64,000 bases of DNA, taken from the NCBI GenBank assembly GCA_965279415.1, contig OZ257238.1, positions 502,925 to 566,924 on the forward strand. Direction: 5' to 3'. This document shows, piece by piece, positions 1 through 64,000 of this stretch. A model generated the notes under the pieces. It was not told where the DNA came from. It ran no database searches and worked only from the letters and a program-made list of their open reading frames with translations. Position 1 is the first letter of the stretch, and the number at the start of each line of letters is the position of its first letter. Position numbers and translations under genes: made by a program. Origin of the DNA: Sphingobium sp. (lineage in GTDB: Bacteria; Pseudomonadota; Alphaproteobacteria; Sphingomonadales; Sphingomonadaceae).

Positions 1-469
1 GATTGCCACCGCCAAGGGATTGCAGCGCAATTTCGGCATCGCCAGCCCACGCCTCGTCATGACGGGTCTCAACCCCCATGCGGGCGAGCAAGGCGCGCTG
101 GGCCGCGAGGAAATCGACGTCATCGCCCCGGCCATCGCCTCGCTGCGCGCCGAAGGAATCGACGTGACCGGTCCGTTTGCCGCCGATGCGCTGTTCCACG
201 CGCGCGCGCGCAAGACCTATGATGCGTGCCTGTGCATGTATCACGATCAGGCGCTGATCCCGGTCAAGACGCTGCATTTCGACGAAGGCGTCAACATGAC
301 GCTGGGGCTGCCGATCATCCGCACCTCGCCCGATCACGGCACGGCGTTCGGCATCGCGGGAACCGACAGCGCCAATCCCGGCGCGATGATCGCCGCGATC
401 CGCATGGCGGGCGAAGCGGCGCTGCATCGCCGGGCGGCGGACGCCGCGCAACTCGCCCCCACCGCCTGA
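1..469 (+). CDS. pdxA: 4-hydroxythreonine-4-phosphate dehydrogenase PdxA, C-terminal part (5' end outside window)
   Basis: The frame is open to the window start. PdxA-type motifs are present: [30 protein letters not shown]. It is followed by rsmA, the classical pdxA-ksgA synteny. Confidence 0.85.
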
Positions 470-1293
470 TGCCGAACCCCAAGCTGCCGCCGCTGCGCGA
501 AGTCATCGCCGCGCACGGGCTTCAGGCCAGCAAGGCGCTGGGCCAGAACTTCCTGCTGGACGAACAGTTGCTGGACCGGATCGCCGCCATCCCCGGATCG
601 CTCGACGGCGCGCGCGTCTATGAAGTCGGCCCCGGCCCCGGTGGCCTGACCCGCGCCTTGCTGCGCGCCGGGGCGAATGTCGTCGCGGTAGAGCGCGACC
701 GGCGTTGCCTGCCCGCACTTGCAGAACTCGATGCGGCCTTCCCCGACCAGTTGACCGTGGTGGAAGGCGACGCGATGGGCATCGATGCCCGTGCGCTGGC
801 GGGGGACGGCGCGCATATCGTCGCCAACCTGCCCTATAATGTCGGGACGGCGCTGCTGGTCGGCTGGCTGTCCGCCGAATGGAAGCCTTGGTGGGCATCG
901 CTGACCTTGATGTTTCAGCAGGAAGTGGCCGAACGGATCGTCGCCCAGCCCGACGGCGATCATTATGGTCGGCTGGCGGTCCTCGGCCAGTGGCGCTCAA
1001 CCGCGCGGATCGCGATGAAGGTGCATCGCAGCGCCTTCACCCCGCCGCCCAAGGTGATGTCCGCCGTCGTCCATGTCACGCCGGACGATGCGCCGGAGGG
1101 CGTGGCCTTCCGCGCGCTGGAAAAGCTGACCGCCGCCGCCTTCGGCCAGCGCCGCAAGATGCTGCGCCAGAGCCTTAAGGGTCTGCCCGGCGGGCTGGCG
1201 GCGCTGGAAGAGGTGGGCATCGATGCCCAGCGGCGCGCCGAGACATTGAGCGTGGCGGAGTTCGTGGCCGTTGCGCGCGTCCTGAGCCGCTGA
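469..1293 (+). CDS. rsmA: 16S rRNA (adenine1518/1519-N6)-dimethyltransferase RsmA/KsgA
   Basis: An in-frame ATG at 469 overlaps the pdxA stop (TGATG). Motifs [18 protein letters not shown] (SAM binding) and NLPYNV are present. The listed ORF from 226 is only an upstream extension running through pdxA. Confidence 0.9.
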
Positions 1294-3705: not shown

Positions 3706-5253
<1,548 letters not shown>

Positions 5254-9541: not shown

Positions 9542-10348
9542 CTAAATCCCCAGTGCCTCCGCCCGCGCGATGAGCGCCCTTGCCGCGTCGACGTGCATCG
9601 CCTCTATCATGCTGCCCTCGAAGCGTTCCGCGCCGCCGGTGGCCGCGTCGATAAGGCGGCGGGCTTCGGCGAGCGCCTGCGGGTCGGGACCGAACAGGGC
9701 GTTAGTGATGCCGATCTGATTGGGATGGATCAGCGTTTTCCCGTCGAAGCCGAAGGCGCGGCCTTCGCGGCATTCCGCTTCCAGCCCCTCCGCATCCTCC
9801 AGACGGTTGTAGACGCCGTCGAATACCGCCTTGCCCGATGCCCGCGCGGCAAGCACGACGCCCTGCAAGGGCAGCGTCAGGCCGCTCCGCCCGGCATCGG
9901 CGGCGATCCCCAGATCCCTGCGCAGATCGTTGACGCCCATGAACAACGCCGCGGTGCCCGGCTGCGCCGCGATGTCCGCCGCCGCGATCAGGCCGCGGGC
10001 ACTTTCGATCATCGCGATCACCGGCTTTTCGGTGACGCTGCGGACATCATGCACCTGCCTTACGGTTTCCACTTTCGGCAGGATCACATAATCCGCTGCG
10101 CTGTGCTTGGCGGCGATCATGTCCGCGCCGTGCCAGGGGGTGCCTTCCATATTGATGCGGATGCCGGTCAGCTTGCCGGGATAGCGCGCAGCGACGGCGG
10201 CGGCGCGCGCCTCCTCCTTTTGCGCGTCCGGCACGGCGTCCTCCAGATCGAGCATCACCATGTCGCATTCCAGCCCCTGCGCCTTTTCCATTGCCCGCGG
10301 ATTGGAGGCGGGCACGAACAGGAGCGACCGGGCAAAGGCAAGCTGCAT
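9542..10348 (-). CDS. HpcH/HpaI aldolase / citrate lyase beta-subunit (CitE)-like lyase
   Basis: Start at MQLAFARSLLFVPASNPRAMEKA. LDLEDAV, ESARG and DGKTLIHPNQI are typical of CitE / malyl-CoA lyase-like proteins. Confidence 0.8.
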   Translation of the reverse strand: MQLAFARSLLFVPASNPRAMEKAQGLECDMVMLDLEDAVPDAQKEEARAAAVAARYPGKLTGIRINMEGTPWHGADMIAAKHSAADYVILPKVETVRQVHDVRSVTEKPVIAMIESARGLIAAADIAAQPGTAALFMGVNDLRRDLGIAADAGRSGLTLPLQGVVLAARASGKAVFDGVYNRLEDAEGLEAECREGRAFGFDGKTLIHPNQIGITNALFGPDPQALAEARRLIDAATGGAERFEGSMIEAMHVDAARALIARAEALGI

Positions 10349-10431
10349 CACATAATCCTTCAAATGCCTTCCCCGGTTAACGCTTTGTCGGCATAGTCCG
10401 AAGTAGGACACGCGAGGGAGGAACCGATTTC

Positions 10432-11412
10432 ATGGTCACGACATTCGCACTGGCAGCCGCGCTGCTCGTCTTTATCTATCTGGCGGCGAGTATCAAGATC
10501 GTCCGGCAAGGCTATCAATATACCATAGAACGCTTCGGCCGCTTTACCGAGGTGGCGCGGCCGGGCCTCAATTTCTATCCCGCCTTCTTCTACAATGTCG
10601 GTCGCAAGATCAACATGATGGAACAGGTCGTTGATATTCCGGGGCAGGAGATCATCACCAAGGACAACGCCATGGTCTCCGTGGACGGCGTGGTGTTCTT
10701 TCAGGTGCTGGACGCCGCCAAGGCCGCATATGAAGTGTCCGAACTCTATGTCGCGATCATGCAGCTGGCGACCACCAACCTGCGGACGGTGATGGGGTCG
10801 ATGGACCTGGACGAGACGCTGTCGAAGCGCGACGAGATCAACGCGCGGCTGCTGTCCGTGGTCGATCATGCGACCGGAAGCTGGGGCGTGAAGATCACGC
10901 GCGTCGAACTGAAGGATATCCGCCCGCCCGCCGACATCGTGAACGCCATGGGCCGCCAGATGAAGGCGGAACGCGAGAAGCGCGCCAACATCCTGGATGC
11001 CGAAGGGATGCGCGCCTCCGAAATCCTGCGCGCCGAGGGCGAGAAGCAGGGACAGATATTGCAGGCCGAAGGGCGACGCGAAGCCGCCTTCCGCGATGCC
11101 GAGGCGCGCGAGCGCGAGGCCGAGGCGGAAGCCAAGGCGACGCAGATGGTGTCCGACGCGATATCGGCGGGCAATCCGCAGGCGCTCAACTACTTCATCG
11201 CGCAGAAATATGTCGAGGCGATCGGCGGCTTTGCGACATCGCCCAATGCCAAGACGATCCTGTTCCCGGTCGAGGCGACGCAGCTGATCGGCACGCTGGG
11301 CGGGATCGGTGAACTGGCGCGCGAGACCTTTGGCGGCGGCACGCCGACCGTGACCGACCCCACGCCCACGACGCCGCGCCGCCGCGGGCCGTTCGAGCAG
11401 GGGGGCGCATGA
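10432..11412 (+). CDS. SPFH/band-7 (stomatin-like) membrane protein
   Basis: An N-terminal TM helix, an SPFH core (IVRQGYQYTIERFGRF ... ITKDNAMVSVDGVVFFQV), and a coiled-coil ER-rich tail. Confidence 0.9.
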   Translation: MVTTFALAAALLVFIYLAASIKIVRQGYQYTIERFGRFTEVARPGLNFYPAFFYNVGRKINMMEQVVDIPGQEIITKDNAMVSVDGVVFFQVLDAAKAAYEVSELYVAIMQLATTNLRTVMGSMDLDETLSKRDEINARLLSVVDHATGSWGVKITRVELKDIRPPADIVNAMGRQMKAEREKRANILDAEGMRASEILRAEGEKQGQILQAEGRREAAFRDAEAREREAEAEAKATQMVSDAISAGNPQALNYFIAQKYVEAIGGFATSPNAKTILFPVEATQLIGTLGGIGELARETFGGGTPTVTDPTPTTPRRRGPFEQGGA

Positions 11413-11852
11413 TCGATATCGGCGCTCTGGACAGTCATTGGCTGTGGCTCATCCTCGCGGTGCTGTTCGGCATCGGCGAGATCGTCATTCCGGGCATATT
11501 CCTGTTCTGGATCGCGATCGCCGCCGCGCTGACCGCGGGCGTGACGATCGTGACCGGCATCGCCCTGCCCGCGCAGATCATCGTTTTCGCCGTGCTGTGC
11601 CTGATCGCGACCTATGCCGGCAAACGCTGGTATCGCGACAATCCGGTCGAATCGCAGGATCCCTTGCTCAACGATCGCGGCGCGCGACTGGTGGGTGAGA
11701 TCGTCACCGTGGTGGAGGCCATCCGCGGCGGACAGGGCCGCGTCAAGCTGGGCGACGGCGTATGGCCATGCCGCGGACCCGATGCTGCGGACGGTGCCCT
11801 GATGCGCGTTACCGGCGTAACCGGCAACGCGCTGATCGTGGAAGTGGTATGA
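11409..11852 (+). CDS. NfeD-family membrane protein
   Basis: The start overlaps the SPFH stop (ATGA). It has TM helices followed by a C-terminal OB-like beta domain (GEIVTVVEAIRGGQGRVKLGDGVWPCRG). The SPFH-NfeD pairing is classical. Confidence 0.85.
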   Translation: MIDIGALDSHWLWLILAVLFGIGEIVIPGIFLFWIAIAAALTAGVTIVTGIALPAQIIVFAVLCLIATYAGKRWYRDNPVESQDPLLNDRGARLVGEIVTVVEAIRGGQGRVKLGDGVWPCRGPDAADGALMRVTGVTGNALIVEVV

Positions 11853-12071
11853 TCCAAACGCCCATCGCGACGCGCGTTCGTAAGCGGTAAAGTTGCGGAA
11901 GTTGCGGCGTAAACAGCCGCAGAAATCCGACGATGTTGCTTCTGACCGCCTGTAAGCGGGCCGATAAAACCGAAACTGGGATTTGAACAAAGGGTATGTT
12001 CGGACGACATGTCCGCTCACTAACCCATCTGGTTATAATTTGCAAGCCTCCGCGAGACGACGCCGAACCGA

Positions 12072-12389
12072 TCAGCCGAACAGACCCTTGGCCAAGCCGC
12101 TCAGATCGTTGACGGGGCTGCCGTCGCCGTCGCGGTCGAACAGGCTACCCAGCTTGCCCATGATCGCTTCGGGACCACCGGCCTGCCCCATCAATTCCTG
12201 CAACTTGTCGGCCGACACGCCATGCGCGGCTGCGGTTTCGGCAAGCGCGGCGACGCTGGTCTTGCCCGATCCGATGTCGGCGGCGATCTGCTGCATCAAC
12301 GGGCCGATCGATTCCGCAGGCAGGCCCAGCTTGGTCGCCAGCGCGTCGAGATCGCCCATATTGCCCAATATGCCGTCGAAAATGCCCAT
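12072..12389 (-). CDS. Small hypothetical protein (105 aa)
   Basis: Start at MGIFDGILGN. It has host-like codon bias and a DRDGDGS EF-hand-like stretch. No family was recognised. Confidence 0.5.
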   Translation of the reverse strand: MGIFDGILGNMGDLDALATKLGLPAESIGPLMQQIAADIGSGKTSVAALAETAAAHGVSADKLQELMGQAGGPEAIMGKLGSLFDRDGDGSPVNDLSGLAKGLFG

Positions 12390-12509
12390 GATCGTCCTCC
12401 GCACGTGATGGAGGCACCATAGCAGCTTTGCCGCGGCACGGGCAAAAAAATGGGGCCGGACGTGCGTGCGTCCGGCCCTCCTCTCCTGGATCGTATCGTG
12501 AAGCGCGGA

Positions 12510-14381: not shown

Positions 14382-15086
14382 ATGAGCGCAACCATTGCGT
14401 TGGTCGATGACGACCGCAACATTTTGACGTCCGTTTCCATAGCGCTTCAGGCCGAAGGCTTCATCACGCGGCTCTATTCGGATTCGGAAGCGGCGCTCAA
14501 GGCGCTGATGGACAATCCGGCGGACCTGGCGGTTTTCGATATCAAGATGCCGAAGATGGACGGCATCGAGCTGCTCCGCCGCCTGCGCGAGAAAAGCGCG
14601 ATGCCCGTCATCTTCCTGACCAGCAAGACCGACGAGCTGGACGAGGCGCTGGGACTGGCCATGGGGGCGGACGACTATATCTCCAAGCCGTTCTCGCAAC
14701 GGCTGCTGATCGCGCGGATCAAGGCGATCCTGCGCCGTGCGGAGTTCGCCCGCCCCTCCACCGACGCCGGCGAACAGGCCGCCGAACCGATCGTGCGCGG
14801 ACGGCTCGAAATGGACCCGGCGCGGCATCGGGTGAAATGGAAGGGCCATGACGTGACGTTGACCGTCACCGAGTTCCTGATTCTCGAAACGCTGGCCACG
14901 CGGCCCGGCGTGGTGAAAAGCCGCAACCAGTTGATGGACGCCGCCTATCAGGACGACGTCTATGTCGACGACCGCACCATCGACAGTCACATCAAGCGGC
15001 TCCGCCGCAAGTTTCGCGAGGCAGACCCCGATTTCAACGCAATCGACACGCTCTATGGCGCCGGATACCGATTCTCGGAAGAATGA
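14382..15086 (+). CDS. chvI: OmpR-family response regulator ChvI
   Basis: A receiver domain (LVDDD...DIKMPKMDG...SKPF) plus a winged-helix output domain (YGAGYRF). It is divergent from pckA and followed by chvG/hprK, the conserved alphaproteobacterial arrangement. Confidence 0.85.
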
Positions 15087-15096
15087 AGGCAGCGAC

Positions 15097-16650
15097 ATGG
15101 CGCTCCAGTGGACGGGGCGGCTGTCGCTGACGCGCCGCATTCTTGCGGTGAACATCTTTGCGCTCGCTTTGCTGGCAGGCGGCTTCTTCTATCTCGACAG
15201 CTACCGCACGCGCATCATCGATACACGGCTGGAGCAGTCGCTGCGGGAGTTGCAATTGCTGGGCATCGCGCTGGAAAGCACGCCCGACGACCAGCATAAC
15301 CGTTTAATCGCGGCTTTCTCGCGCAAGAACGACAGCCGCATCCGGCAATATCGCCGCGATGGCCAGTTGATCGCGGACAGCTTCGTCCTCGCGACGCCGC
15401 GCTACGAATTGCGCGATCCGGCCAGCGAGGACTGGCAGCGGCACGTCGCGCGCTTCCTCGACCGCGTGGTCGACCGGATCGTCTTTGCCCCGCCGACACC
15501 CTATTTCGTCGAGCCTGCGGTCGATCGGGCGCAGGCATGGCCCGAAGTGCTGGCGGCGCAACGCACGGGCAAACCGCAGGTGATGAACCGCTTCGCGCCC
15601 GATCGCACGCCGATGATCTCCGCCGCCCTGCCGACGCGCGGCGGCGACATGCTGCTGGCCACGGAAAATGCGCGCGACATCACGCGCGTGGTGCGTGCCG
15701 AAAGATTGCGCCTCGGCTTCGTGCTGGCCGCCGCACTGATGGGATCGACGTTGCTCTCGCTCTTCCTCGCGCGCACGATCGTATTGCCGCTGCGGCGGCT
15801 GGCGCGGGCTGCGGTGCGGGTGCGGCTGGGCCGGGCGCGCGAAGTGACGGTGCCGCGCCTGCCCGAACGACGCGACGAAATCGGGCTGCTGGCGCGCGCC
15901 CTGTCCGACATGAGCCATGCGCTGCGCCAGCGGATCGACGCGACCGACGCCTTCGCCGCGGATGTCAGCCATGAGCTGAAGAACCCCATCGCCTCGCTGC
16001 GCTCCGCGCTCGACGGGCTGGAGCGGATCGAGCGGCCCGACCTGCGCGCGCAATTGCTCGCCATCGCCAAGGACGACGTGCGGCGGCTCGACCGGCTGGT
16101 GACCGACATCGCCGAAGCCTCGCGCGTCGATGCGCAATTGTCGCGCACCCGATTCGAGCCGGTCGATCTGGGCAAGCTGATCGAGCAGCTGATCGTCGCC
16201 CGCGAAACGCGCGGCATAGAGCGCGACGTCCGCATCGCCTTCGCCCGTCCGCGCAAGGATGTGGCGGTGGTGATGGGCGAGGAGCAGCGGCTGGCCCGCG
16301 TGCTCGAAAACCTGCTCGACAACGCCATTTCCTTCTCCCCGCCCGGCGGCCTCGTCCAGATCGTAGCGACGGTGGCGAACGAGCAGGTGCTCGTCAGCGT
16401 CGAGGACGAAGGCCCCGGCGTTCCTACCGAAGAGCGCGAGACGGTGTTCCGCCGCTTCCACAGCGTCCGCCCCGAAGGCGAGCAGTTCGGCAAGCACAGC
16501 GGGCTCGGCCTCGCCATCGCGCGCAGCATCGTGGAGGGGCATCAGGGCCGCATCAGCATCGGCGACCGCGACGATGCGCAGCAGGGCGCTAGCTTCATCG
16601 TCCACCTGCCGATGGCGCAGGCCGCCGACCCCGGCATGGCTTCGGAATAG
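15097..16650 (+). CDS. chvG: Sensor histidine kinase ChvG
   Basis: ATG at 15097. It has two TM segments flanking a periplasmic domain, a HAMP domain, the H-box DVSHELKNPIASL, and the N/G boxes LLDNAISFSP and GLGLAIARSIVEGHQG. Confidence 0.85.
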   Translation: MALQWTGRLSLTRRILAVNIFALALLAGGFFYLDSYRTRIIDTRLEQSLRELQLLGIALESTPDDQHNRLIAAFSRKNDSRIRQYRRDGQLIADSFVLATPRYELRDPASEDWQRHVARFLDRVVDRIVFAPPTPYFVEPAVDRAQAWPEVLAAQRTGKPQVMNRFAPDRTPMISAALPTRGGDMLLATENARDITRVVRAERLRLGFVLAAALMGSTLLSLFLARTIVLPLRRLARAAVRVRLGRAREVTVPRLPERRDEIGLLARALSDMSHALRQRIDATDAFAADVSHELKNPIASLRSALDGLERIERPDLRAQLLAIAKDDVRRLDRLVTDIAEASRVDAQLSRTRFEPVDLGKLIEQLIVARETRGIERDVRIAFARPRKDVAVVMGEEQRLARVLENLLDNAISFSPPGGLVQIVATVANEQVLVSVEDEGPGVPTEERETVFRRFHSVRPEGEQFGKHSGLGLAIARSIVEGHQGRISIGDRDDAQQGASFIVHLPMAQAADPGMASE

Positions 16651-44680: not shown

Positions 44681-45142
44681 TCAGTTTGGAATGATCTTCC
44701 ATTTATGCGCTGTCCCCGGCGCGGGGGAAAAGCTCGATGGTTGGGGTGACAGGGGCGGCGGGTCGCAGACGCCTTCCTGAATGTAGCGCATCGCCGACAT
44801 CAGGCCGGACCGGCTGAATGGCTTGGGGATGACGCCATCGGCGCCGCAGAAGTCGCTCGGAATTTTCTTCGGATTGGCGGTGAGGAATATGACGGCGGTG
44901 TCCGCCCATTGCCGCCGGATGTGGGCGCAGACGTCGAGGCCGCTCGATCCCTCGTCGAGCTGGATATCGACGAAGGCGATGTGCGGTTGGCGGTCCCTCG
45001 GCAAGGCGACGACTTCGCGCAGCGACGAGGCCTCGCCGACGACATTGTGGCCGGAATCCAGGATCATGGCTTCGATGTCCATGGCCAGCAAGGCTTCATC
45101 CTCCACGATGAGCACGTCGAGCGGCGGGACACAGGGGGGCAT
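44681..45142 (-). CDS. Single-domain response regulator (receiver only) partnered with the LOV kinase
   Basis: VLIVEDEALLAMD, phospho-acceptor region AFVDIQLDEGSSG, and PKPF. No output domain. It lies 11 nt downstream of the kinase stop. Confidence 0.8.
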   Translation of the reverse strand: MPPCVPPLDVLIVEDEALLAMDIEAMILDSGHNVVGEASSLREVVALPRDRQPHIAFVDIQLDEGSSGLDVCAHIRRQWADTAVIFLTANPKKIPSDFCGADGVIPKPFSRSGLMSAMRYIQEGVCDPPPLSPQPSSFSPAPGTAHKWKIIPN

Positions 45143-54998: not shown

Positions 54999-55135
54999 CT
55001 TGTTCCCCGGCGAAGGCCCGGGGTCCAGGGCAACAAGGATGTACTGTGCGACTCTGGACCCCCGCCTTCGCAAGACCTCTGCAAAAAGGGGAATAAGATA
55101 AAAGTCGTCGTCATTCCCGCGAAGGCGGGGGGGTA
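54999..55135. repeat. Three copies of the small CCCGCGAAGGCGGGGGTCCAG-type hairpin repeat
   Basis: The copies are TTCCCCGGCGAAGGCCCGGGGTCCAG, the inverted CTGGACCCCCGCCTTCGCAAG, and TCATTCCCGCGAAGGCGGGGGGG. They belong to the same family as 32268..32353. Confidence 0.6.
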
Positions 55136-55186
55136 TAGTGATAGATGGAATTATGCACGTCGCTGACCACACTAGCACTAACAGCC

Positions 55187-55720
55187 TTATGATGGACCGA
55201 CTTGTTCGCCATCGAGAAAGATGCGCCTGCCTTCCGGGCATTTGACATAAGAGAACCGCTTACCCTGATCATTAAAGGTGAGTGTATCGGCGGTTAGCTT
55301 GACGATTGGAAAGCGATTGACCTGACGAAGCGTAGTCACAGCAGGGGGAGCATCCGCATCTGCCGTTTCGTCCAGTTCATATTTCGATGTGGTGTCGCGT
55401 ACCAAAGTGGCATCTGTGATTTCCCACCGCCCTTCAACACCGCTAAACTCGTCACCTTCGGAAAACCTGCCGCTTGCGCTGTAAACCGCGCCATAGCCAG
55501 TGCCGCAACCGCCATCAACGGGTGCCCAAACACCAACAATCTTTGATGCCTCATCGGGGACATTTGGGCTGCTGCTGGTAACATGGCTGGATACAGCATT
55601 ATTCGCTTGAATAGCCAAATTCGGATTGCTGTTAATTTCCTGTCCGGCGTAGTAACCCGCTCCGGCAAGGGAAACCGCAAGCATAAATCCACCGATGCCA
55701 TATAGAAAGGGCTTACTCAT
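55187..55720 (-). CDS. Hypothetical membrane-anchored protein (177 aa)
   Basis: N-terminal TM helix (LYGIGGFMLAVSLAGAGYYAG). AT-rich codon usage. No family recognised. Confidence 0.5.
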   Translation of the reverse strand: MSKPFLYGIGGFMLAVSLAGAGYYAGQEINSNPNLAIQANNAVSSHVTSSSPNVPDEASKIVGVWAPVDGGCGTGYGAVYSASGRFSEGDEFSGVEGRWEITDATLVRDTTSKYELDETADADAPPAVTTLRQVNRFPIVKLTADTLTFNDQGKRFSYVKCPEGRRIFLDGEQVGPS

Positions 55721-55741
55721 AGCGTTGCTCCCACCCTGCTA

Positions 55742-56332
55742 TCAGAATTTCACTTTGCTTTCTGCCGCTGCCCGTCCCGGTTTATTCACTTTGTCCTCGT
55801 CCGTCCAAAGAACGCGGAAATCCAGAAGCGTCATTTCGAGGGACTTTGCACCTCCGTTATCCATGACCATTGCCGTCATCCACATAGTCCGGAAGGGATT
55901 GGCCTCGCCTTCGGGTGTGCGTACCTGTTCGATCAATTCCCATTCGTAAACACTGGCAGTGGTGCGGGCAGGAACGCCATATTTCGCAGATAGCTTATTG
56001 GCGAGTGTCGAACGAAAAGCATCATCTAAGGCAAATTGCCCAAGCTGCTGGCTGGACTGGATGCGATAAATGCGGCCAAGCGGCGTCACTTCAAAGTTGA
56101 AGTGCAACCCATCGCGCTCCGTTTCAAACTGGTATCCGCCAACAGATGTGATTGTCGATAGCTTCGCTGCCTCTCTAATAGGCATCCCCAACGCAAAACC
56201 GCCAATCTCACGCGATTTCGTTGCCGAAGCTATGGCGGGAGAATGCGTCGGCTGTCCTGTCGCTTCACCATATCCTAATGGCAATGCAAGAACGGAAACG
56301 GCCAATGCCGCTACGGCCAGATGCTTCTGCAT
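55742..56332 (-). CDS. Hypothetical secreted protein (196 aa)
   Basis: Signal peptide MQKHLAVAALAVSVLALPLG. No family recognised. Confidence 0.5.
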   Translation of the reverse strand: MQKHLAVAALAVSVLALPLGYGEATGQPTHSPAIASATKSREIGGFALGMPIREAAKLSTITSVGGYQFETERDGLHFNFEVTPLGRIYRIQSSQQLGQFALDDAFRSTLANKLSAKYGVPARTTASVYEWELIEQVRTPEGEANPFRTMWMTAMVMDNGGAKSLEMTLLDFRVLWTDEDKVNKPGRAAAESKVKF

Positions 56333-57837: not shown

Positions 57838-58761
57838 CTAAATTTCCGGGCATTTAACGCCCCGCCTAATGGCTAAAATACACTGTACGAATCGCATAGC
57901 TGGCCATGGACCCGTCGAAGTTTGTTTTGCCACAGAGTTTTGCATTTCCAGCATGGCACGAAGCGGGTTTGCTACATCCAAATCCGCGATATCCAGGCGC
58001 TCTGTCATCTGCGCTAATTGCCGCGGCATTCGCCCAATTCGGTAATTTAGCGCCCGTGCAATTCTAAACTCTCGCTGCGACGCATTTTTGATTTCGCTTT
58101 CGGCAGAGTCCTCAATTTCATCTTCGGTTCCCATGACGCCGGACCATAGGTTTGCGAGTCCTTCGATGCTGGCGCTGAATAGGGAAAGGTCGATACCGGG
58201 CAATATCTGTTCAGCCGCACTTTGCAAAAGTGTCGCGTTTTGATCGACGGCTGTTGCCTTTCCCTTGTGTGCCAATTCCGCGAAGGTTGCGTAGAAAGCA
58301 TCGGATTGCTGGAATGGCGTATCTATGAATCGGCTATCAAGCCGTCCAATTTGCGTCCGAATGGCTCGCTTTTGGGTTTGGCCCAAATCTGCGTAATTTT
58401 TATTGTCCATGTATGTTGTTCGACGATGCACCAATTGCGCCCGCCACTTGCCCAATTCTTTGACCAACGCTTCCCTCACACGATCAAAGTCAGAATGACC
58501 CCATTCAAGATATGCTTGCACGATCAGTTCATGTTGCCTGCGGACACCCCTCTTACGCAGTTCGGCTAATCGCATTGCCCTCCTCAATGAGGTTTCGGTT
58601 CGCGACCACTCCGGTCCCTTCCCATATACGCGCCCGATCGCTTTAGCTTTAGGTAAAATATCCCATGCCACCCATTGCCGAATGACATGGATGGTAAGTG
58701 CATCCGGTCCGGATAGTCCGGCCTTTTCATTGAGCAAGGCCGCAAATTCGCTGTTCGTCAT
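57838..58761 (-). CDS. Hypothetical protein (307 aa), first gene of the cas1 operon
   Basis: A clean ORF with the same strand as cas1, ending 66 nt upstream of it. No motif recognised. Confidence 0.55.
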   Translation of the reverse strand: MTNSEFAALLNEKAGLSGPDALTIHVIRQWVAWDILPKAKAIGRVYGKGPEWSRTETSLRRAMRLAELRKRGVRRQHELIVQAYLEWGHSDFDRVREALVKELGKWRAQLVHRRTTYMDNKNYADLGQTQKRAIRTQIGRLDSRFIDTPFQQSDAFYATFAELAHKGKATAVDQNATLLQSAAEQILPGIDLSLFSASIEGLANLWSGVMGTEDEIEDSAESEIKNASQREFRIARALNYRIGRMPRQLAQMTERLDIADLDVANPLRAMLEMQNSVAKQTSTGPWPAMRFVQCILAIRRGVKCPEI

Positions 58762-58844
58762 AGCAGCCCCTCGAAAGACAGCCTCACACAGATGCGTCTC
58801 GATTTGCGAGATTGGACTCCGGTTGGCGAGTCACAAATGCCGTC

Positions 58845-59414
58845 ATGGCACGCAAAAGAGACCATCGCCGGGAATATCAACGCCGCTTGGCCAATGCCGA
58901 AAAGCGCGGCCTAACCCGTTCGCAGGCTCGCGGCCATGCGAAGGCAGGCGAAAAGCCTGTTGGCAAACCTTCGACAAGGGACATGGGCAAGTTTGAAGCG
59001 GCCCTAAAAATCTACCGTCAGTCCGGCAATCGTGGTGCTGCGGCTAAGGCGATGGGCATTGCGCCGGAACGGTTCAGCCGGTTGCTAGCGGATACCGTGC
59101 AAGTATCGGGGCGCGGCAAATCGCTCAAAATCATCGACAACCGCCCTCGCGAAATGGCCGTCATCACCGATGGTCAAATGCGCCGGATCATCCTGCGCGA
59201 TTACGATCAGGCAGCGATCAATGGCGAGTATCTCAATGCCGCCAAAGCCTTTCTGGCATCCAACGATGACGAGGTGCTGCATCCCTTTGCAGGCCGATCA
59301 ATCGTGGACGCCAAGGGCAAAGCGCACCTCCTCGAAACCGACCCCAACATTTTACACCGGATTGCAGGGTCAGACGATCCGGCATTCCTCGAAATCTATC
59401 GCATTGTTCAGTGA
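58845..59414 (+). CDS. Hypothetical protein (189 aa) with basic N-terminus, first gene of the HNH-polB operon
   Basis: ATG 58845. It has the basic segment RKRDHRREYQRRLANAEKRGLTRSQARGH and a possible HTH (NRGAAAKAMGIAPERFSRLL). Confidence 0.55.
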   Translation: MARKRDHRREYQRRLANAEKRGLTRSQARGHAKAGEKPVGKPSTRDMGKFEAALKIYRQSGNRGAAAKAMGIAPERFSRLLADTVQVSGRGKSLKIIDNRPREMAVITDGQMRRIILRDYDQAAINGEYLNAAKAFLASNDDEVLHPFAGRSIVDAKGKAHLLETDPNILHRIAGSDDPAFLEIYRIVQ

Positions 59415-59427
59415 AAGGAGAAGCAAT

Positions 59428-59793
59428 ATGAATACGTTAGAATTGCGGAAAGAGTCTCGCAGGCAAGGCCGATTGGAACGGCTTGGCACTAATGATCCAA
59501 ATTGCGGCCTGTGTGGCGAGCATGATGACCGTTGCTTGGAACTGCATCATGTGGCCGACTATCGGCGCGATGACGGCACGGTAGTTATATGCCGGAACTG
59601 CCATCGTAAGGTGAGCGACGATCAGAAGGATCATCCCCGCTTTGATCCCGCTGCCGACCCGATGCTGGATCGTATCGGCCATTTCCTGTTGGGCTTGGCA
59701 GACCTGCTGCGCCTCATCGTCGAGAAGCTGATGGTCTTTGGTCATTGTCTGATCGAACGCGCCGCGCCCTCCAGCAAGGGAGAGGTGGCATGA
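59428..59793 (+). CDS. HNH endonuclease
   Basis: ATG 59428 with SD AAAGGAGA. The motif is CGLCGE...LELHHV...VVICRNCHRKV (CxxC..HH..CxxCH zinc/HNH pattern). Confidence 0.75.
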   Translation: MNTLELRKESRRQGRLERLGTNDPNCGLCGEHDDRCLELHHVADYRRDDGTVVICRNCHRKVSDDQKDHPRFDPAADPMLDRIGHFLLGLADLLRLIVEKLMVFGHCLIERAAPSSKGEVA

Positions 59794-62700
59794 CATATAT
59801 CCCGCCGATCACCGATCATCTGGCCGTCGCGATCCGGGCATTTACCGGACCACAGTTCACGGTCCTTGCTGATCCAAATGATAATAAACCCAAGTCGAAA
59901 AAAGCGATAGCGCCAGCGTCAGACTGGACGCTCGTTTTCGATACCGAGACGACAGCCGATGCCGCCCAAGCATTGCGGTTCGGCACCTATCAGTTTCGCA
60001 ATAAGGATGCGTTGGAAGAGGCAGGCATATTCTATGATCCCGATGGCGTGACCCCAACGGAACTGGAATGCCTGACAGCCTACGCCGATACCCATGGCCT
60101 ATGCCTGCGAACGCGGCAGAGTTTCGTGGACGATGTATTCTTTGCCCGCGCCTATCAACTTCGGGCAACGATTATCGGCTTCAATCTGCCCTTCGACATT
60201 TCGCGCCTCGCCGTCAGCCACGGAACGGCACGAACGCCGATTGCGGATGAGACGGGCACCTTGCGCGGCGGCTTCACCTTCAAGCTGTCGGAACAGAAAA
60301 TCTATCCCAACATTCGCGTCAAACATATGTCGCGGCGGGCGGCGCTGATTTCCTTTGCCGCCACGATGGGACAGCGTGACAGTCGCGGCCAACGCAACCG
60401 GGGCTTCAAAAGCCCGGTTCGGCGCGGCCATTTCATCGACGTAAAAACATTGGCCGGGGCGCTCTTTGCGCGCAGTTTCTCGCTGGCCAGCCTGTGCCGC
60501 TTTCTCAACGTCGAGCATCCCAAGCTGGACTTTGAGGATTTCGCAGCGCCGATCAGCGATGACATGATCCGCTATGCCGTTGCAGACGTGCAGGCGACAT
60601 GGGAATGCTACCGGGCAGCGCTGGCGCGTTTCGATCAGCTTGGTTTGCGCCAAGCCAAGCCCGAAAAAATCTACAGCGAAGCCAGCATCGGCAAAGCCTA
60701 TATCAAGGCGATGGGCATTCAGCCTTGGCGCACGATGCAACCGGATTTCCCACGCGATGTGCTGGCCAAGATCATGGGCAGCTATTTCGGCGGACGTTCG
60801 GAAGTTCGCATTCGTCGGGAAATGCGGCAAGTCATGCTCTGCGATTTCCTGTCCATGTATCCGACCGTCTGCACGTTGATGGGGCTTTGGCGCTTCGTCA
60901 TTGCTACGGGGATGACATGGCGAGATTCTACCGACGAAACCCGCTCGTTTCTGGACAGCATCGACTTGGCGACGTTGCAATCGCAGGATGTCTGGCAACA
61001 TCTGACTACGCTTGTTCGGGTGCTATCTGATTGGGACATTTTCCCTGTTCGTGCCGACTATGCGGAAAAGGGGCAGAACACGATTGGCGCAAATGCCCTG
61101 ACATCGGATACGCCATTGTGGTTCACTCTGGCGGATTGCATCGCATCCAAATTGCTGACGGGCAAGACGCCCCAAGTCATAGAAACGATCAGCTTCACGC
61201 CGGGGTCGCTGCAACCCAATCTTGAAGCCATCAATATCAGTGGCAATCCGGCCTATCGCGTCGATCCGAACGAAACGGATTTCTTCAAGCGCGTCATCGA
61301 ATTGCGTCAGACAATCAAACAAAAGCGCGATGCTGCTGATCCACAAGAACGCGATGTGCTGGACATCGAACAGAACGCCCTCAAAATTGCGGCCAATGCG
61401 ACCAGCTACGGCATATGGGTGGAAGTGAATGTTGATGTCCGGCCCACGCCATCCTCCGTGACGGTGCATAGTTCTACTTGTGATCCGTTCAGTTTCCAGA
61501 CCGACAAGCGGGAAAATCCCGGCACCTATTTTCATCCCTTGCTGGCCACGCTGATAACCGGCGCTGCTCGGTTGATGCTAGCGATCACCGAACGGCTTGT
61601 GACCGACGCAGGGCTGGATTGGACCTTTTGCGATACGGACAGCATGGCGATGGCCAAGCCCGACACGATGTCACCAGACGAGTTTGCGGAAAAAGCCAAT
61701 GCTGTCGTTACGTGGTTTGCGGCGCTCAATCCTTATGCGTTCGATGCGTCGATCCTGAAAATCGAGGATGTGAACTATGCCCTCGCATCGAACGAACCTG
61801 AACCGCTTTACTGTTGGGCCATTTCGTCCAAGCGATATGCGCTGTTCAATCTGGACGCCAATGGGCAACCCATCATGCGCAAGGTATCTGCGCATGGCTT
61901 GGGGCATTATCTGCCGCCCTATGACGATGCCGACGCGCCACCGGATTTTCCGGTGCCTGACAAGTCCGTCCTGAAAGATGGCACGTTACGCTGGCATTGC
62001 GACCTGTGGCATCAAATCGTCACCGCTGCGATAGCCGGGTATCCCGATCAGGTGGCACGAAACTATCATCCGGCGATGAGCCAACCGGCGCGCAGTCGTT
62101 ATGCCGCGACCTCTCCGGACCTGTTGCGATGGTTCAAATCCTACAACGTCAATCGGTCTTATCGCGATCAGGTCAAGCCCTTCGGCTTCATGCTGGCGTT
62201 TAGCGAACAGCAGAATCATGCAGCGGAAAGTGTCGTTACCTCGGCAAAGAAGGGGAGGCCAAAAAAGGCTACCGCGATCAAGCCGATTGCACCCTTCGAG
62301 AGGGACAGCGCGAAAGCCGCTGCAATGGCTTTTGATCGGGTGACGGGAAAAGCTGTTCCAGCTTCAAGCCTGCGCACTTATGCCGATGCGCTTTTCCAAT
62401 ATCATATCTCGCCAGAAGCCAAATTCCTGAATGGCGATTATCTGGACAAGGGCATCACGCAGCGGCGGCATGTGTATATGGCAAACGTCCACCACATCGG
62501 GAAGGAGGCGCATGATTGGGAGCGCCACGCCATGCTGGGGACAAGTGCCGATGGTGAAATCAGCTATGGCAATCGAACCAACATAATCGGGGCAGTGTCA
62601 GCACTGATCGTGGAATTTGGCCATGTGCCAACAGCCAAAGCGTTTGGGGTGTCATCACGGCAATTAACGGCGGCAGTGCGTGATGCGCCTGAAAGCGGCA

Positions 62701-62897
62701 AAAGTCGTATTGCGTCCAGTCTGACGGTCAGGCTTCCCAAGGTCGTCAAGACATTGCGGCAAGCGGCGGCGGCTAAACGAAAGGAAGTGCGGCACCTTCG
62801 TGCTTTGGTTGATAACTATGGGTTGCGGGAAGCTGCTCGCCAAGAGGGATTAGACCCGTCAAATCTGAGGCGTAGGATTGCGCAAAGAAAGCTGTGA
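59790..62897 (+). CDS. polB: Family-B DNA polymerase with 3'-5' exonuclease domain
   Basis: The start overlaps the HNH stop (ATGA). ExoI is VFDTET (59937..59954), ExoII GFNLPFDISRL, ExoIII YAVADVQ. Pol motif A is DFLSMYPT (60842..60865), B is KIAANATSYG (61383..61412), C is FCDTDSM (61626..61646), and KxY is SSKRYALF. Confidence 0.85.
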   Translation: MTYIPPITDHLAVAIRAFTGPQFTVLADPNDNKPKSKKAIAPASDWTLVFDTETTADAAQALRFGTYQFRNKDALEEAGIFYDPDGVTPTELECLTAYADTHGLCLRTRQSFVDDVFFARAYQLRATIIGFNLPFDISRLAVSHGTARTPIADETGTLRGGFTFKLSEQKIYPNIRVKHMSRRAALISFAATMGQRDSRGQRNRGFKSPVRRGHFIDVKTLAGALFARSFSLASLCRFLNVEHPKLDFEDFAAPISDDMIRYAVADVQATWECYRAALARFDQLGLRQAKPEKIYSEASIGKAYIKAMGIQPWRTMQPDFPRDVLAKIMGSYFGGRSEVRIRREMRQVMLCDFLSMYPTVCTLMGLWRFVIATGMTWRDSTDETRSFLDSIDLATLQSQDVWQHLTTLVRVLSDWDIFPVRADYAEKGQNTIGANALTSDTPLWFTLADCIASKLLTGKTPQVIETISFTPGSLQPNLEAINISGNPAYRVDPNETDFFKRVIELRQTIKQKRDAADPQERDVLDIEQNALKIAANATSYGIWVEVNVDVRPTPSSVTVHSSTCDPFSFQTDKRENPGTYFHPLLATLITGAARLMLAITERLVTDAGLDWTFCDTDSMAMAKPDTMSPDEFAEKANAVVTWFAALNPYAFDASILKIEDVNYALASNEPEPLYCWAISSKRYALFNLDANGQPIMRKVSAHGLGHYLPPYDDADAPPDFPVPDKSVLKDGTLRWHCDLWHQIVTAAIAGYPDQVARNYHPAMSQPARSRYAATSPDLLRWFKSYNVNRSYRDQVKPFGFMLAFSEQQNHAAESVVTSAKKGRPKKATAIKPIAPFERDSAKAAAMAFDRVTGKAVPASSLRTYADALFQYHISPEAKFLNGDYLDKGITQRRHVYMANVHHIGKEAHDWERHAMLGTSADGEISYGNRTNIIGAVSALIVEFGHVPTAKAFGVSSRQLTAAVRDAPESGKSRIASSLTVRLPKVVKTLRQAAAAKRKEVRHLRALVDNYGLREAARQEGLDPSNLRRRIAQRKL

Positions 62898-63067
62898 TCA
62901 GCTTACACGGTGTCCTTCATACGAACCTCCAAACCGGATGCATCTATATTTTGGTTGCTATCAAATTAATGCATTTTCGCACTATACAATCTATCAAAAT
63001 TGAAAATATAACAAAGCCTTACGGATTTCCTTTGTTTGCAGGGGAGCCGTGGAACGGGGGGCAATAT

Positions 63068-63844
63068 ATGGCAGATTTTTTACGGTTGTTGGCCGGTCAC
63101 ATCACCCGTCGAACCTATGCAGTAGGGGTTATGCTTCTGATCTCCAGTTGTGGCCAAGCGAGTGGGCAGAATTATCCGCCGTACCGCTATCGCCTCACCG
63201 TGGAAGTGGACACGCCGTCGGGTCTGCGGACTGGATCGAGTGTTATTGAGGTTCGTACTTTCGTTGCTGGGAAAAACGCTATTCCCAGTCCGGGTCAAGT
63301 GTTCCATCGTGTGACCGGAGAGGCTGTTGCTGTTGATCTGCCGGGCAATCAGAGGCTCTTTGCCTTGCTGCGTTCGGAAGAATCCTATGACTGGGCCTCC
63401 GGGGTTTTGGCGGCGCAGACAGAGCCTATTACAGTCAAGGAAACGCTCAGGATGCGGAAAGAGGGTAAAGACCCTTTTGACGAAAGGATGCGCCGCACGC
63501 TTACTTTGACCGGCGTGCATGTACTGCCCCGTTGGCAGCGTCCCTCCAAAGTCAAGGCACAAAATATGCACCGTATCAGCGGCTATCCTATTCTTGCCAG
63601 GTTTCGTGATATTCGCGATCCAAAGACAGTTGGGCTGGTTGATCCTGATAATCTTGACGTGAGTTTCGGGCAAGGCGTGTCGCTTCGGCGAATTACTGTC
63701 GAACGAACACAAGCCGCCGTGACAAAGAGCATTGACAGAAAGTTGCCTAGCTTTGGCCCAGAAACAGGCTTTAGCACTTGGCTAAAAAAATTGCCGTTCA
63801 GTGATGAACGCAGGCAAATAGTTGATAGCTTTAGGCGGAGATAA
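63068..63844 (+). CDS. Hypothetical lipoprotein (258 aa)
   Basis: ATG 63068 and the lipobox-like MLLISSCGQ. AT-rich. No family recognised. Confidence 0.5.
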   Translation: MADFLRLLAGHITRRTYAVGVMLLISSCGQASGQNYPPYRYRLTVEVDTPSGLRTGSSVIEVRTFVAGKNAIPSPGQVFHRVTGEAVAVDLPGNQRLFALLRSEESYDWASGVLAAQTEPITVKETLRMRKEGKDPFDERMRRTLTLTGVHVLPRWQRPSKVKAQNMHRISGYPILARFRDIRDPKTVGLVDPDNLDVSFGQGVSLRRITVERTQAAVTKSIDRKLPSFGPETGFSTWLKKLPFSDERRQIVDSFRRR

Positions 63845-63848
63845 AAAC

Positions 63849-64000
63849 ATGAACGACAATGTCATGCGAGCAATTCTCGCAATGGATTCTTATAACCGTA
63901 GCTATGGACAAGGAATAAACGGAATATCCGACTCTTCGATGGTTGGGAATGCATCTGTAATAAAAGATTCAAGCATATTTGAAATTGATGATCAAAGAAT
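63849..64000 (+). CDS. Hypothetical protein, N-terminal 50 aa only (continues beyond window)
   Basis: ATG 63849 lies 2 nt after the upstream stop codon. The frame is open to the window end (MNDNVMRAILAMDSYNRSYGQGING...) and very AT-rich. Confidence 0.4.
   Translation, partial: MNDNVMRAILAMDSYNRSYGQGINGISDSSMVGNASVIKDSSIFEIDDQR

Follow-up and report, generated by a model that had tools for sequence, protein, structure and literature searches.

Casposons, which are self-replicating transposons that encode Cas1, are presumed to have given rise to the machinery of CRISPR adaptation. The subject here is the B-family DNA polymerase (PolB) of a casposon in the chromosome of Sphingobium sp., together with the helix-turn-helix (HTH) units at its C-terminus; the element lies in a stretch of 64,000 nucleotides (assembly GCA_965279415.1, contig OZ257238.1, positions 502,925 to 566,924 of the forward strand), which is called the window below and is numbered from its first base. 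Only four bacterial (family 3) casposons had been described in 2014. HenMar-C1 of Henriciella marina, a family 3 element, carries Cas1, a small gene for a MerR-like HTH protein (Table S2), an HTH protein, an HNH/zinc protein and PolB, and its polymerase was annotated without an HTH (Krupovic et al. 2014, PMC4046053). C-terminal HTHs were reported on the PolBs of family 2 casposons, in which Cas1 carries this HTH too, and the polymerase of NitAL212-C1, likewise of family 3, was annotated as 'PolB-HTH', its tail matching the XRE-type regulator VanU by HHpred (PMC4046053). A cluster of polymerases with CDTDS in motif C, named PolB_CDTDS, includes a casposon enzyme from Aciduliprofundum boonei and was said to have ties to the main PolB group as well as to the protein-primed PolBs (Kazlauskas et al. 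2020, PMC7544198).

The order of the five genes is the same in the window as in HenMar-C1, Cas1 is free of fused domains in both (neither an HTH nor a zinc domain is fused to the window Cas1), and both hosts are alphaproteobacteria. The two Cas1 proteins are 44% identical (E 3e-80), and Hyphomonadaceae homologues of the window PolB were found (L007, L011). Several differences were also noted. The counterpart of the MerR-like gene encodes a 307-aa protein without a detectable family; the window PolB has two HTH units, whereas the HenMar-C1 polymerase was annotated with none and the Hyphomonadaceae relatives are tail-less; the terminal repeat reads GGGGTATAGTGATAG... in the window and CCCCCTCTCCCGGATCGGGAGGGG... 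in HenMar-C1; and the duplication was given as 1 bp for HenMar-C1 against 15 bp in relatives of the window element. The cargo differs too. By its gene order and Cas1 sequence the element is classed as a HenMar-C1-like casposon (family 3), whose left end and core genes lie in the window. The order Cas1, 200-aa HTH protein, HNH protein and PolB recurs in nine loci, from Sphingomonas, Sphingobium, Sphingopyxis, Novosphingobium, Hyphomonadaceae and Fimbriimonadaceae, and no homologue was found in the plasmid and phage collections. Because of this casposon context, in which the initial annotation of the bare sequence had not placed it, the PolB gene is largely explained.

With NitAL212-C1, the window shares a C-terminal HTH on a casposon PolB and the beginning of the terminal repeat (GGGGTATGTTAAC... 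in NitAL212-C1, where the duplication is 14 bp). The fusions of NitAL212-C1 and of family 2 are on record as a single HTH, whereas the window PolB carries a tandem pair of homologous units joined by a long helix, the comparison being one of descriptions; unlike family 2, the window has no HTH on Cas1. A polymerase fused to HTH modules had at first been thought unusual, but such fusions were already on record in family 2 casposons and NitAL212-C1 (PMC4046053). Hence, the window PolB is a new example of an already described fusion and not a new category. What seem undescribed in the literature searched are the sphingomonad hosts, the tandem duplicated HTH, the modular series of tails, the module at residues 700-915 and the palindrome-targeted 15-bp duplications; a literature search on casposons in sphingomonads found nothing.

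HenMar-C1-like casposons are common in Sphingomonadales, the polymerase family having more than 2600 protein matches in the 90% collection and forming 4148 clusters when grouped at 50% identity (E ≤1e-3). The relatives' casposons supply defined ends, with 15-bp duplications that lie in GC-rich palindromes, and the casposon polymerase can be described as a conserved 915-aa body with interchangeable, putative DNA-binding tails. As sphingomonads are culturable and genetically tractable, they offer a practical system for the priming and recruitment of casposon polymerases.

Catalytic domains and affinities of the polymerase

On sequence and predicted fold, the gene almost certainly encodes an intact proofreading B-family DNA polymerase of an integrated casposon. 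With an in-frame TTG (59745) as the start codon, the protein would have 1050 aa, but the relatives begin at the position of the ATG (Table 1). This ATG overlaps the stop codon of the preceding HNH gene (ATGA, 59790-59793), an arrangement which implies that the two genes may be translationally coupled. Motif conservation was taken from an alignment of 86 relatives (A1) spanning 31-91% identity, the nearest relative being P0001 at 91%. The initial annotation had read a real open reading frame (ORF) with all exonuclease and polymerase motifs and a probably active enzyme, and this was borne out: all the motifs are present, the catalytic positions are 98-100% conserved across the alignment (95-100% for the exonuclease residues D51/E53, N132/D136 and Y262/D266), none of the catalytic Asp residues is substituted on proper alignment, and intact catalytic residues in both domains argue for activity.

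The Pfam, NCBIfam and PDB searches with the single protein gave marginal PolB matches at motif B only (Pfam DNA_pol_B, 23.2 bits with the cutoff at 23; E 0.05 in the PDB) and the polymerase family is therefore highly divergent. A profile search raised the PolB match only to E ~5e-06, with archaeal PolB and Pol alpha matched at motif B. The full-length AlphaFold2 model is of good confidence (pLDDT 90.2, pTM 0.88), and with it Foldseek found Pol alpha, archaeal PolB and phi29 DNA polymerase at E ~1e-13 and 12-14% identity. The exonuclease carboxylates, motifs A, B, C and KxY and the overall fold are thus those of a proofreading B-family enzyme.

In the model, the layout of the polymerase resembles that of phi29 more than that of archaeal enzymes. 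ExoI sits at residue 51, hence there is no N-terminal domain before the exonuclease domain, which in phi29 likewise lies near the N-terminus. An insert of ~130 aa occupies residues 366-497 of the polymerase core, at the TPR1 position, and the AlphaFold2 model has a long beta-hairpin of 32 residues at 546-577 after motif B, at the TPR2 position; extra sequence at these two places is shared with phi29, the likeness being positional. Motifs A and B are 180 aa apart in the window PolB against ~83 aa in Deep Vent, as measured in an alignment. The corresponding distance in phi29 is ~134 residues. Of all structural matches, phi29 had the best target-normalised TM-score (0.57). There are differences as well, in that the window PolB is almost twice as long as the phi29 enzyme, has a 215-aa module and HTH tails after KxY where phi29 has a 45-aa thumb, and has no known terminal protein, with which the phi29 type works. 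A primer-independent enzyme (piPolB), which had been left as an option in the initial annotation, is disfavoured, because KRY stands where KTRG would be expected; the KTRG motif is reportedly what defines piPolB (Redrejo-Rodriguez et al. 2017).

The window PolB fits the casposon-linked PolB_CDTDS lineage on the strength of its motif C. As in that cluster, the motif has a conserved Cys (92%) and the enzyme is encoded by a casposon, and by Foldseek it is equidistant from main-group and phi29-type PolBs, as was stated for the cluster (PMC7544198). Membership of PolB_CDTDS was defined by CLANS clustering, whereas the window PolB is placed by motif C. The same paper has neither a sphingomonad bacterial branch nor a figure for its size, which is the 4148 clusters given above.

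The C-terminal module and its tail

KxY is followed by 352 residues, which the initial annotation had taken for an extension of ~330 aa. Only the last ~110-120 residues stand as an HTH tail; the ~215 residues before them (700-915) belong to the conserved body of the polymerase itself. This family-wide module has near-invariant landmarks (SAHGLGH 700-706, W735, W740, F782, N786 and IGKE 903-906), several of which are 98-100% conserved, and in the full AlphaFold2 model its pLDDT is >90. It is kept in relatives without an HTH, whose chains stop 20-30 residues beyond IGKE (L007 and L011 of Hyphomonadaceae). When residues 700-915 were modelled alone, no significant fold match was found in the PDB or BFVD; the isolated C-terminal model was less confident (pLDDT 78.5, falling below 50 at the 894-906 hairpin). 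The module is probably a thumb equivalent with a family-specific elaboration.

The two HTH segments named at first, TAKAFGVSSRQLTAAVRD (residues 948-965) and YGLREAARQEGLDPSNLRRRIAQRKL (residues 1010-1035), both fall in predicted HTH helices, and these tail helices were predicted in the full model and in the isolated C-terminal model alike. Aligned with each other by hhalign, the two units also prove to be homologous (probability 95.6%, E 1.3e-08). In relatives, the aligned units reach 24.8 and 23.3 bits for HTH_3 (cutoff 23) and 28.6 for LacI (cutoff 27), and a Pfam search of the tails of 26 relatives gave HTH_3 in 10 (E ≤0.01), HTH_31 in seven and HTH_8 in one. The segments can thus be regarded as genuine on model helices, relatives' Pfam scores and mutual homology, and because the homologous positions in relatives score, the tail of the window PolB is also assigned to XRE/Cro. 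Distant relatives have the full XRE signature in both units, with the continuation '...G.R.PS...L..L', and in sphingomonads unit 2 ends right after the recognition helix. The Fis/resolvase-like label once given to the last segment did not hold, since HTH_8 was matched by a single one of the 26 relatives (0.0015) and HTH_7 by one at E 0.089, and no match to either family was found by Pfam in the window's own tail. By sequence, the tail units are of the XRE/Cro-C1 type and not Fis/resolvase-like, and XRE proteins likewise predominate in the Foldseek lists for the tail, although these matches fall short of significance.

In the 223 family members whose IGKE could be recognised, the following states were seen at this place: no tail, one HTH, two HTHs, an HTH combined with a zinc ribbon, and a zinc ribbon by itself. 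Small nucleic-acid-binding modules thus swap at one position, as would be expected of interchangeable add-ons, and this swapping is the strongest indirect indication that the tail may bind DNA. The C-terminal zinc ribbon (CxxC-x10-13-CxxxC with a basic tail) was seen in 15 of the 223 members, where it replaces or follows the HTH (for example P0153, P0155, P0168, P0183, P0189 and P0212). By lineage, the Hyphomonadaceae members have no tail and one Fimbriimonadaceae member has one HTH.

Proposed recruitment to element DNA and alternative readings

The account preferred as a whole, at a probability of roughly 0.72, is that this is the replicative polymerase of a family 3 casposon and that its HTH tail recruits it to element DNA. 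According to this account, Cas1 would cut and join the element at the GGGGTATAGTGATAG termini and thereby make the 15-bp duplications, and the polymerase would copy the element, probably processively and with displacement of a strand. The HTH tail would tether or recruit the polymerase to element DNA, most likely at the conserved blocks of the terminal repeats, and so supply origin and end recognition in cis. That the tail would target the polymerase to the ends of the element is plausible; the recruitment mechanism, taken by itself, is advanced tentatively and with somewhat less than even confidence.

A number of points weigh against this account. The window's own HTH segments lie below Pfam thresholds (E 0.011-0.09), and the Foldseek lists for the tail, made up almost wholly of XRE/Cro proteins with the MuB N-terminal domain, have E ≥0.3. 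Binding of DNA by the isolated casposase HTH could not be shown (Hickman et al., PMC6977970), DNA-binding data do not exist for any casposon HTH, and no biochemically characterised casposon PolB was found in the literature searched. The Hyphomonadaceae relatives lack the tail and keep the gene set, hence the tail is not essential to the mechanism of the family. The argument of a shared site made for family 2 does not transfer, because Cas1 here has no matching HTH. Finally, the intactness and mobility of this copy rest on a right end beyond the window and are unproven.

The first alternative gives the tail a part in regulation or assembly in place of end targeting. The HTHs would then repress or tune the divergent promoters at 58761-58812, or the long helix would dimerise or dock to Cas1, the 200-aa HTH protein or the HNH protein. 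HTHs of the XRE type usually belong to transcription regulators, and the Foldseek lists do show C-proteins, antitoxins, cII and ClgR; the 39-residue helix joining the two units would suit assembly, the tail-less relatives mark the tail as accessory, and the casposase HTH is essential, yet its DNA binding could not be shown (PMC6977970). However, a regulator fused to a 915-aa enzyme would be an inefficient repressor design, and the alternative tails, including zinc ribbons with basic C-termini, suggest generic nucleic-acid tethering. No internal copies of the terminal-repeat motif that could serve as HTH operators were found in the window, the divergent intergenic region included, where other operators may lie. 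On balance, this alternative is considered unlikely.

The second alternative concerns priming, and holds that the enzyme is a phi29-like protein-primed or self-priming replicase, in which a small conserved protein would be the terminal protein, initiation would slide back on the G run and the tail would position the enzyme at the end. The layout set out above (ExoI position and missing N-terminal domain, motif A-B distance against Deep Vent, hairpin after motif B, best target-normalised TM-score to phi29) is in its favour, as are the stated relation of PolB_CDTDS to PolBmain and pPolB (PMC7544198) and the at least four identical bases with which the termini of all copies start. On the other side, the inserts match TPR1/TPR2 by position only, by E-value phi29 is matched no better than Pol alpha and archaeal PolB, and family 2/3 PolBs were set apart from the protein-primed family 1 enzymes by Krupovic et al. 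(2014, PMC4046053). Furthermore, integrated casposons are without evidence of a covalently attached protein, and no terminal-protein candidate was identified, the small proteins of the element having no informative family matches. It is accordingly rated as improbable.

The recruitment account can be extended into a bolder form, which is at present a long shot. With a rigid helix of ~60 angstroms between them, the tandem HTHs would recognise the terminal-repeat blocks GGGGTATAGTGATAG and TGACCACAC, which are ~33 bp apart. A phi29-like, strand-displacing PolB, which might be primed by a protein or prime itself, would in this way be set on the G-run terminus, and bacterial casposons would need no host initiator for their replication. 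If origin recognition were built in like this, the swapping of tails (HTH, zinc ribbon or none) would record how each lineage retargeted its polymerase.

That the whole post-KxY region is a standard PolB thumb, its apparent HTHs being thumb helices, is highly improbable: a thumb follows KxY in every PolB and, with 830-900 columns covered when Foldseek aligned the whole model to Pol alpha and archaeal PolB, part of 700-915 may superpose on a thumb, but relatives stop 20-30 residues past IGKE (~906) and residues 925-1035 are therefore not a required thumb, while the aligned tail units of relatives score at HTH_3 or LacI gathering level, the two units are repeats of each other and the isolated C-terminal model matches HTH proteins only and no polymerase. 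For residues 925-1035 this scenario, which the initial annotation had itself raised, is largely ruled out.

Termini, neighbouring genes and insertion sites

The features of the region are collected in Table 1; the gene inventory around PolB was taken from the ORF list of 48-64 kb.

Table 1 Features of the polymerase and of the casposon around it, with positions in the window (percentages refer to the alignment of 86 relatives)
Feature	PolB residues	Nucleotides	Strand	Remarks
Predicted left copy of 15-bp target-site duplication, TCCCGCGAAGGCGGG		55115..55129	.	by analogy with complete relatives
Left terminal inverted repeat, GGGGTATAGTGATAG ... CTGACCACAC		55130..55172	+	exact match to terminal motif of relatives
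Two cargo ORFs, 177 aa (55187-55720) and 196 aa (55742-56332)		55187..56332	-	hydrophobic, signal-peptide-like N-termini
Cas1-solo (casposase), 381 aa		56647..57792	-	Pfam Cas_Cas1 2.5e-29, TIGR00287 6.7e-24
307-aa protein, poorly conserved		57838..58761	-	position of MerR-like HTH gene in HenMar-C1
Conserved casposon HTH protein, 200 aa as called		58812..59414	+	likely start ATG near 58845 (MARKRD...), ~190 aa
HNH-type nuclease with Cys4 zinc motif, 122 aa		59425..59793	+	PHROG HNH endonuclease 3.6e-05
Casposon B-family DNA polymerase, 1035 aa	1-1035	59790..62897	+	ATG start
3'-5' exonuclease domain	46-330	59925..60779	+	no archaeal-type N-terminal domain before it
ExoI, FDTETT	50-55			D51 98%, E53 98%
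ExoII, NLPFD	132-136			D136 98%
ExoIII, YAVAD	262-266			D266 100%
Polymerase core	331-699	60780..61886	+	YxGG, motifs A, B, Tx2AR, C (FCDTDS), KRY
YxGG	332-335			GG (G334/G335) 100%
Motif A, DFLSMYP	352-358			D352 99%
Motif B, KIAANATSYG	532-541			K532 99%; N536/Y540/G541 also present
Motif C, FCDTDS	613-618			DTD (D615/T616/D617) 100%; C614 92%
KxY, KRY	681-683			K and R 100%; K681-R682-Y683 98-100%
Family-wide post-KxY module	700-915	61887..62534	+	near-invariant columns
HTH unit 1	925-965	62562..62684	+	XRE/Cro-type; helices 929-943, 945-952, 956-964
Long connecting helix, 39 residues	972-1010	62703..62819	+	from model
HTH unit 2	~1000-1035	62787..62894	+	homologous to unit 1; helices 1012-1019, 1023-1031

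The left terminus is unique in the window save for one unrelated match with three mismatches at 45134, and the G run leaves its exact outer edge ambiguous. The inverted repeats of relatives start with GGGGTATAG(T/C)GATAG, and several of them add the second block TGACCACAC. In L010, a 53-nt terminal repeat (50/53) is accompanied by the 15-bp duplication CCCGGCCCGGAAGGG (4548-4615 and 15066-15133); L004 and L009 show the same arrangement, with the duplications CCGGATCAAGTCCGG and CCGGACTTGATCCGG, respectively (end regions at about 4391-4455 and 15448-15512 in L004, and at about 9685-9714 and 12304-12333 in L009). It was found that L004 and L009 sit in opposite orientations in copies of one palindrome, CCGGATCAAGTCCGG, and in the window TCCCGCGAAGGCGGG forms part of a GC-rich palindromic hairpin. 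These sites suggest that the family 3 casposase targets hairpins or palindromes of a GC-rich, REP- or terminator-like kind.

The GC content falls from ~0.65 to ~0.53 from roughly 54800 to the end of the window. Neither a right terminus nor a second copy of the flanking 15-mer was found in the downstream search within the window, hence the element runs past base 64000. A candidate right end at 62967-62987, which matches over 21 nt at 71% and shares GTATAGTG with the left terminus, was rejected, as it has no G run, no CACAC block and no second flanking 15-mer.

Concerning the neighbouring genes, the two cargo ORFs gave no Pfam or PHROG match and no tblastn homologue in related loci, and are probably lineage-specific cargo inside the low-GC element. 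The 307-aa protein had no Pfam match, and among related loci a homologue was found only in L001. The 200-aa HTH protein adjoins HNH and PolB in the nine loci, and a segment of it is weakly similar to the first HTH unit of PolB (hhalign probability 60%). The HNH protein, which is conserved in 10 loci, gave weak matches to IscB/AI2M HNH. An intergenic region of ~50 bp (58761-58812) separates the leftward genes for the 307-aa protein and Cas1 from the rightward genes for the HTH protein, HNH and PolB. Downstream of PolB (62894-64000, forward strand), the GC content is 0.45-0.53; a 316-aa ORF without a known family lies there and a second ORF starts at ~63850 (MNDNVMRAILAMDSYNRSYG...), and these are probably further cargo before the right end.

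Two related loci have features of their own. In a metagenome-assembled genome of Sphingomonadales (L006), the Cas1-PolB block is bracketed by a 137-nt inverted repeat (134/137; 1-137 and 12371-12507), which is much longer than the GGGGTATAG termini and unlike them; it could be the terminal repeat of that lineage or flanking copies of an insertion sequence. On a Sphingopyxis chromosome (NZ_OZ245749.1), L009 contains at 9700-12318 an element of 2.6 kb with both terminal repeats and the 15-bp duplication. It keeps only PolB residues 184-771 and is, judged from its sequence, an internally deleted, non-autonomous casposon derivative.

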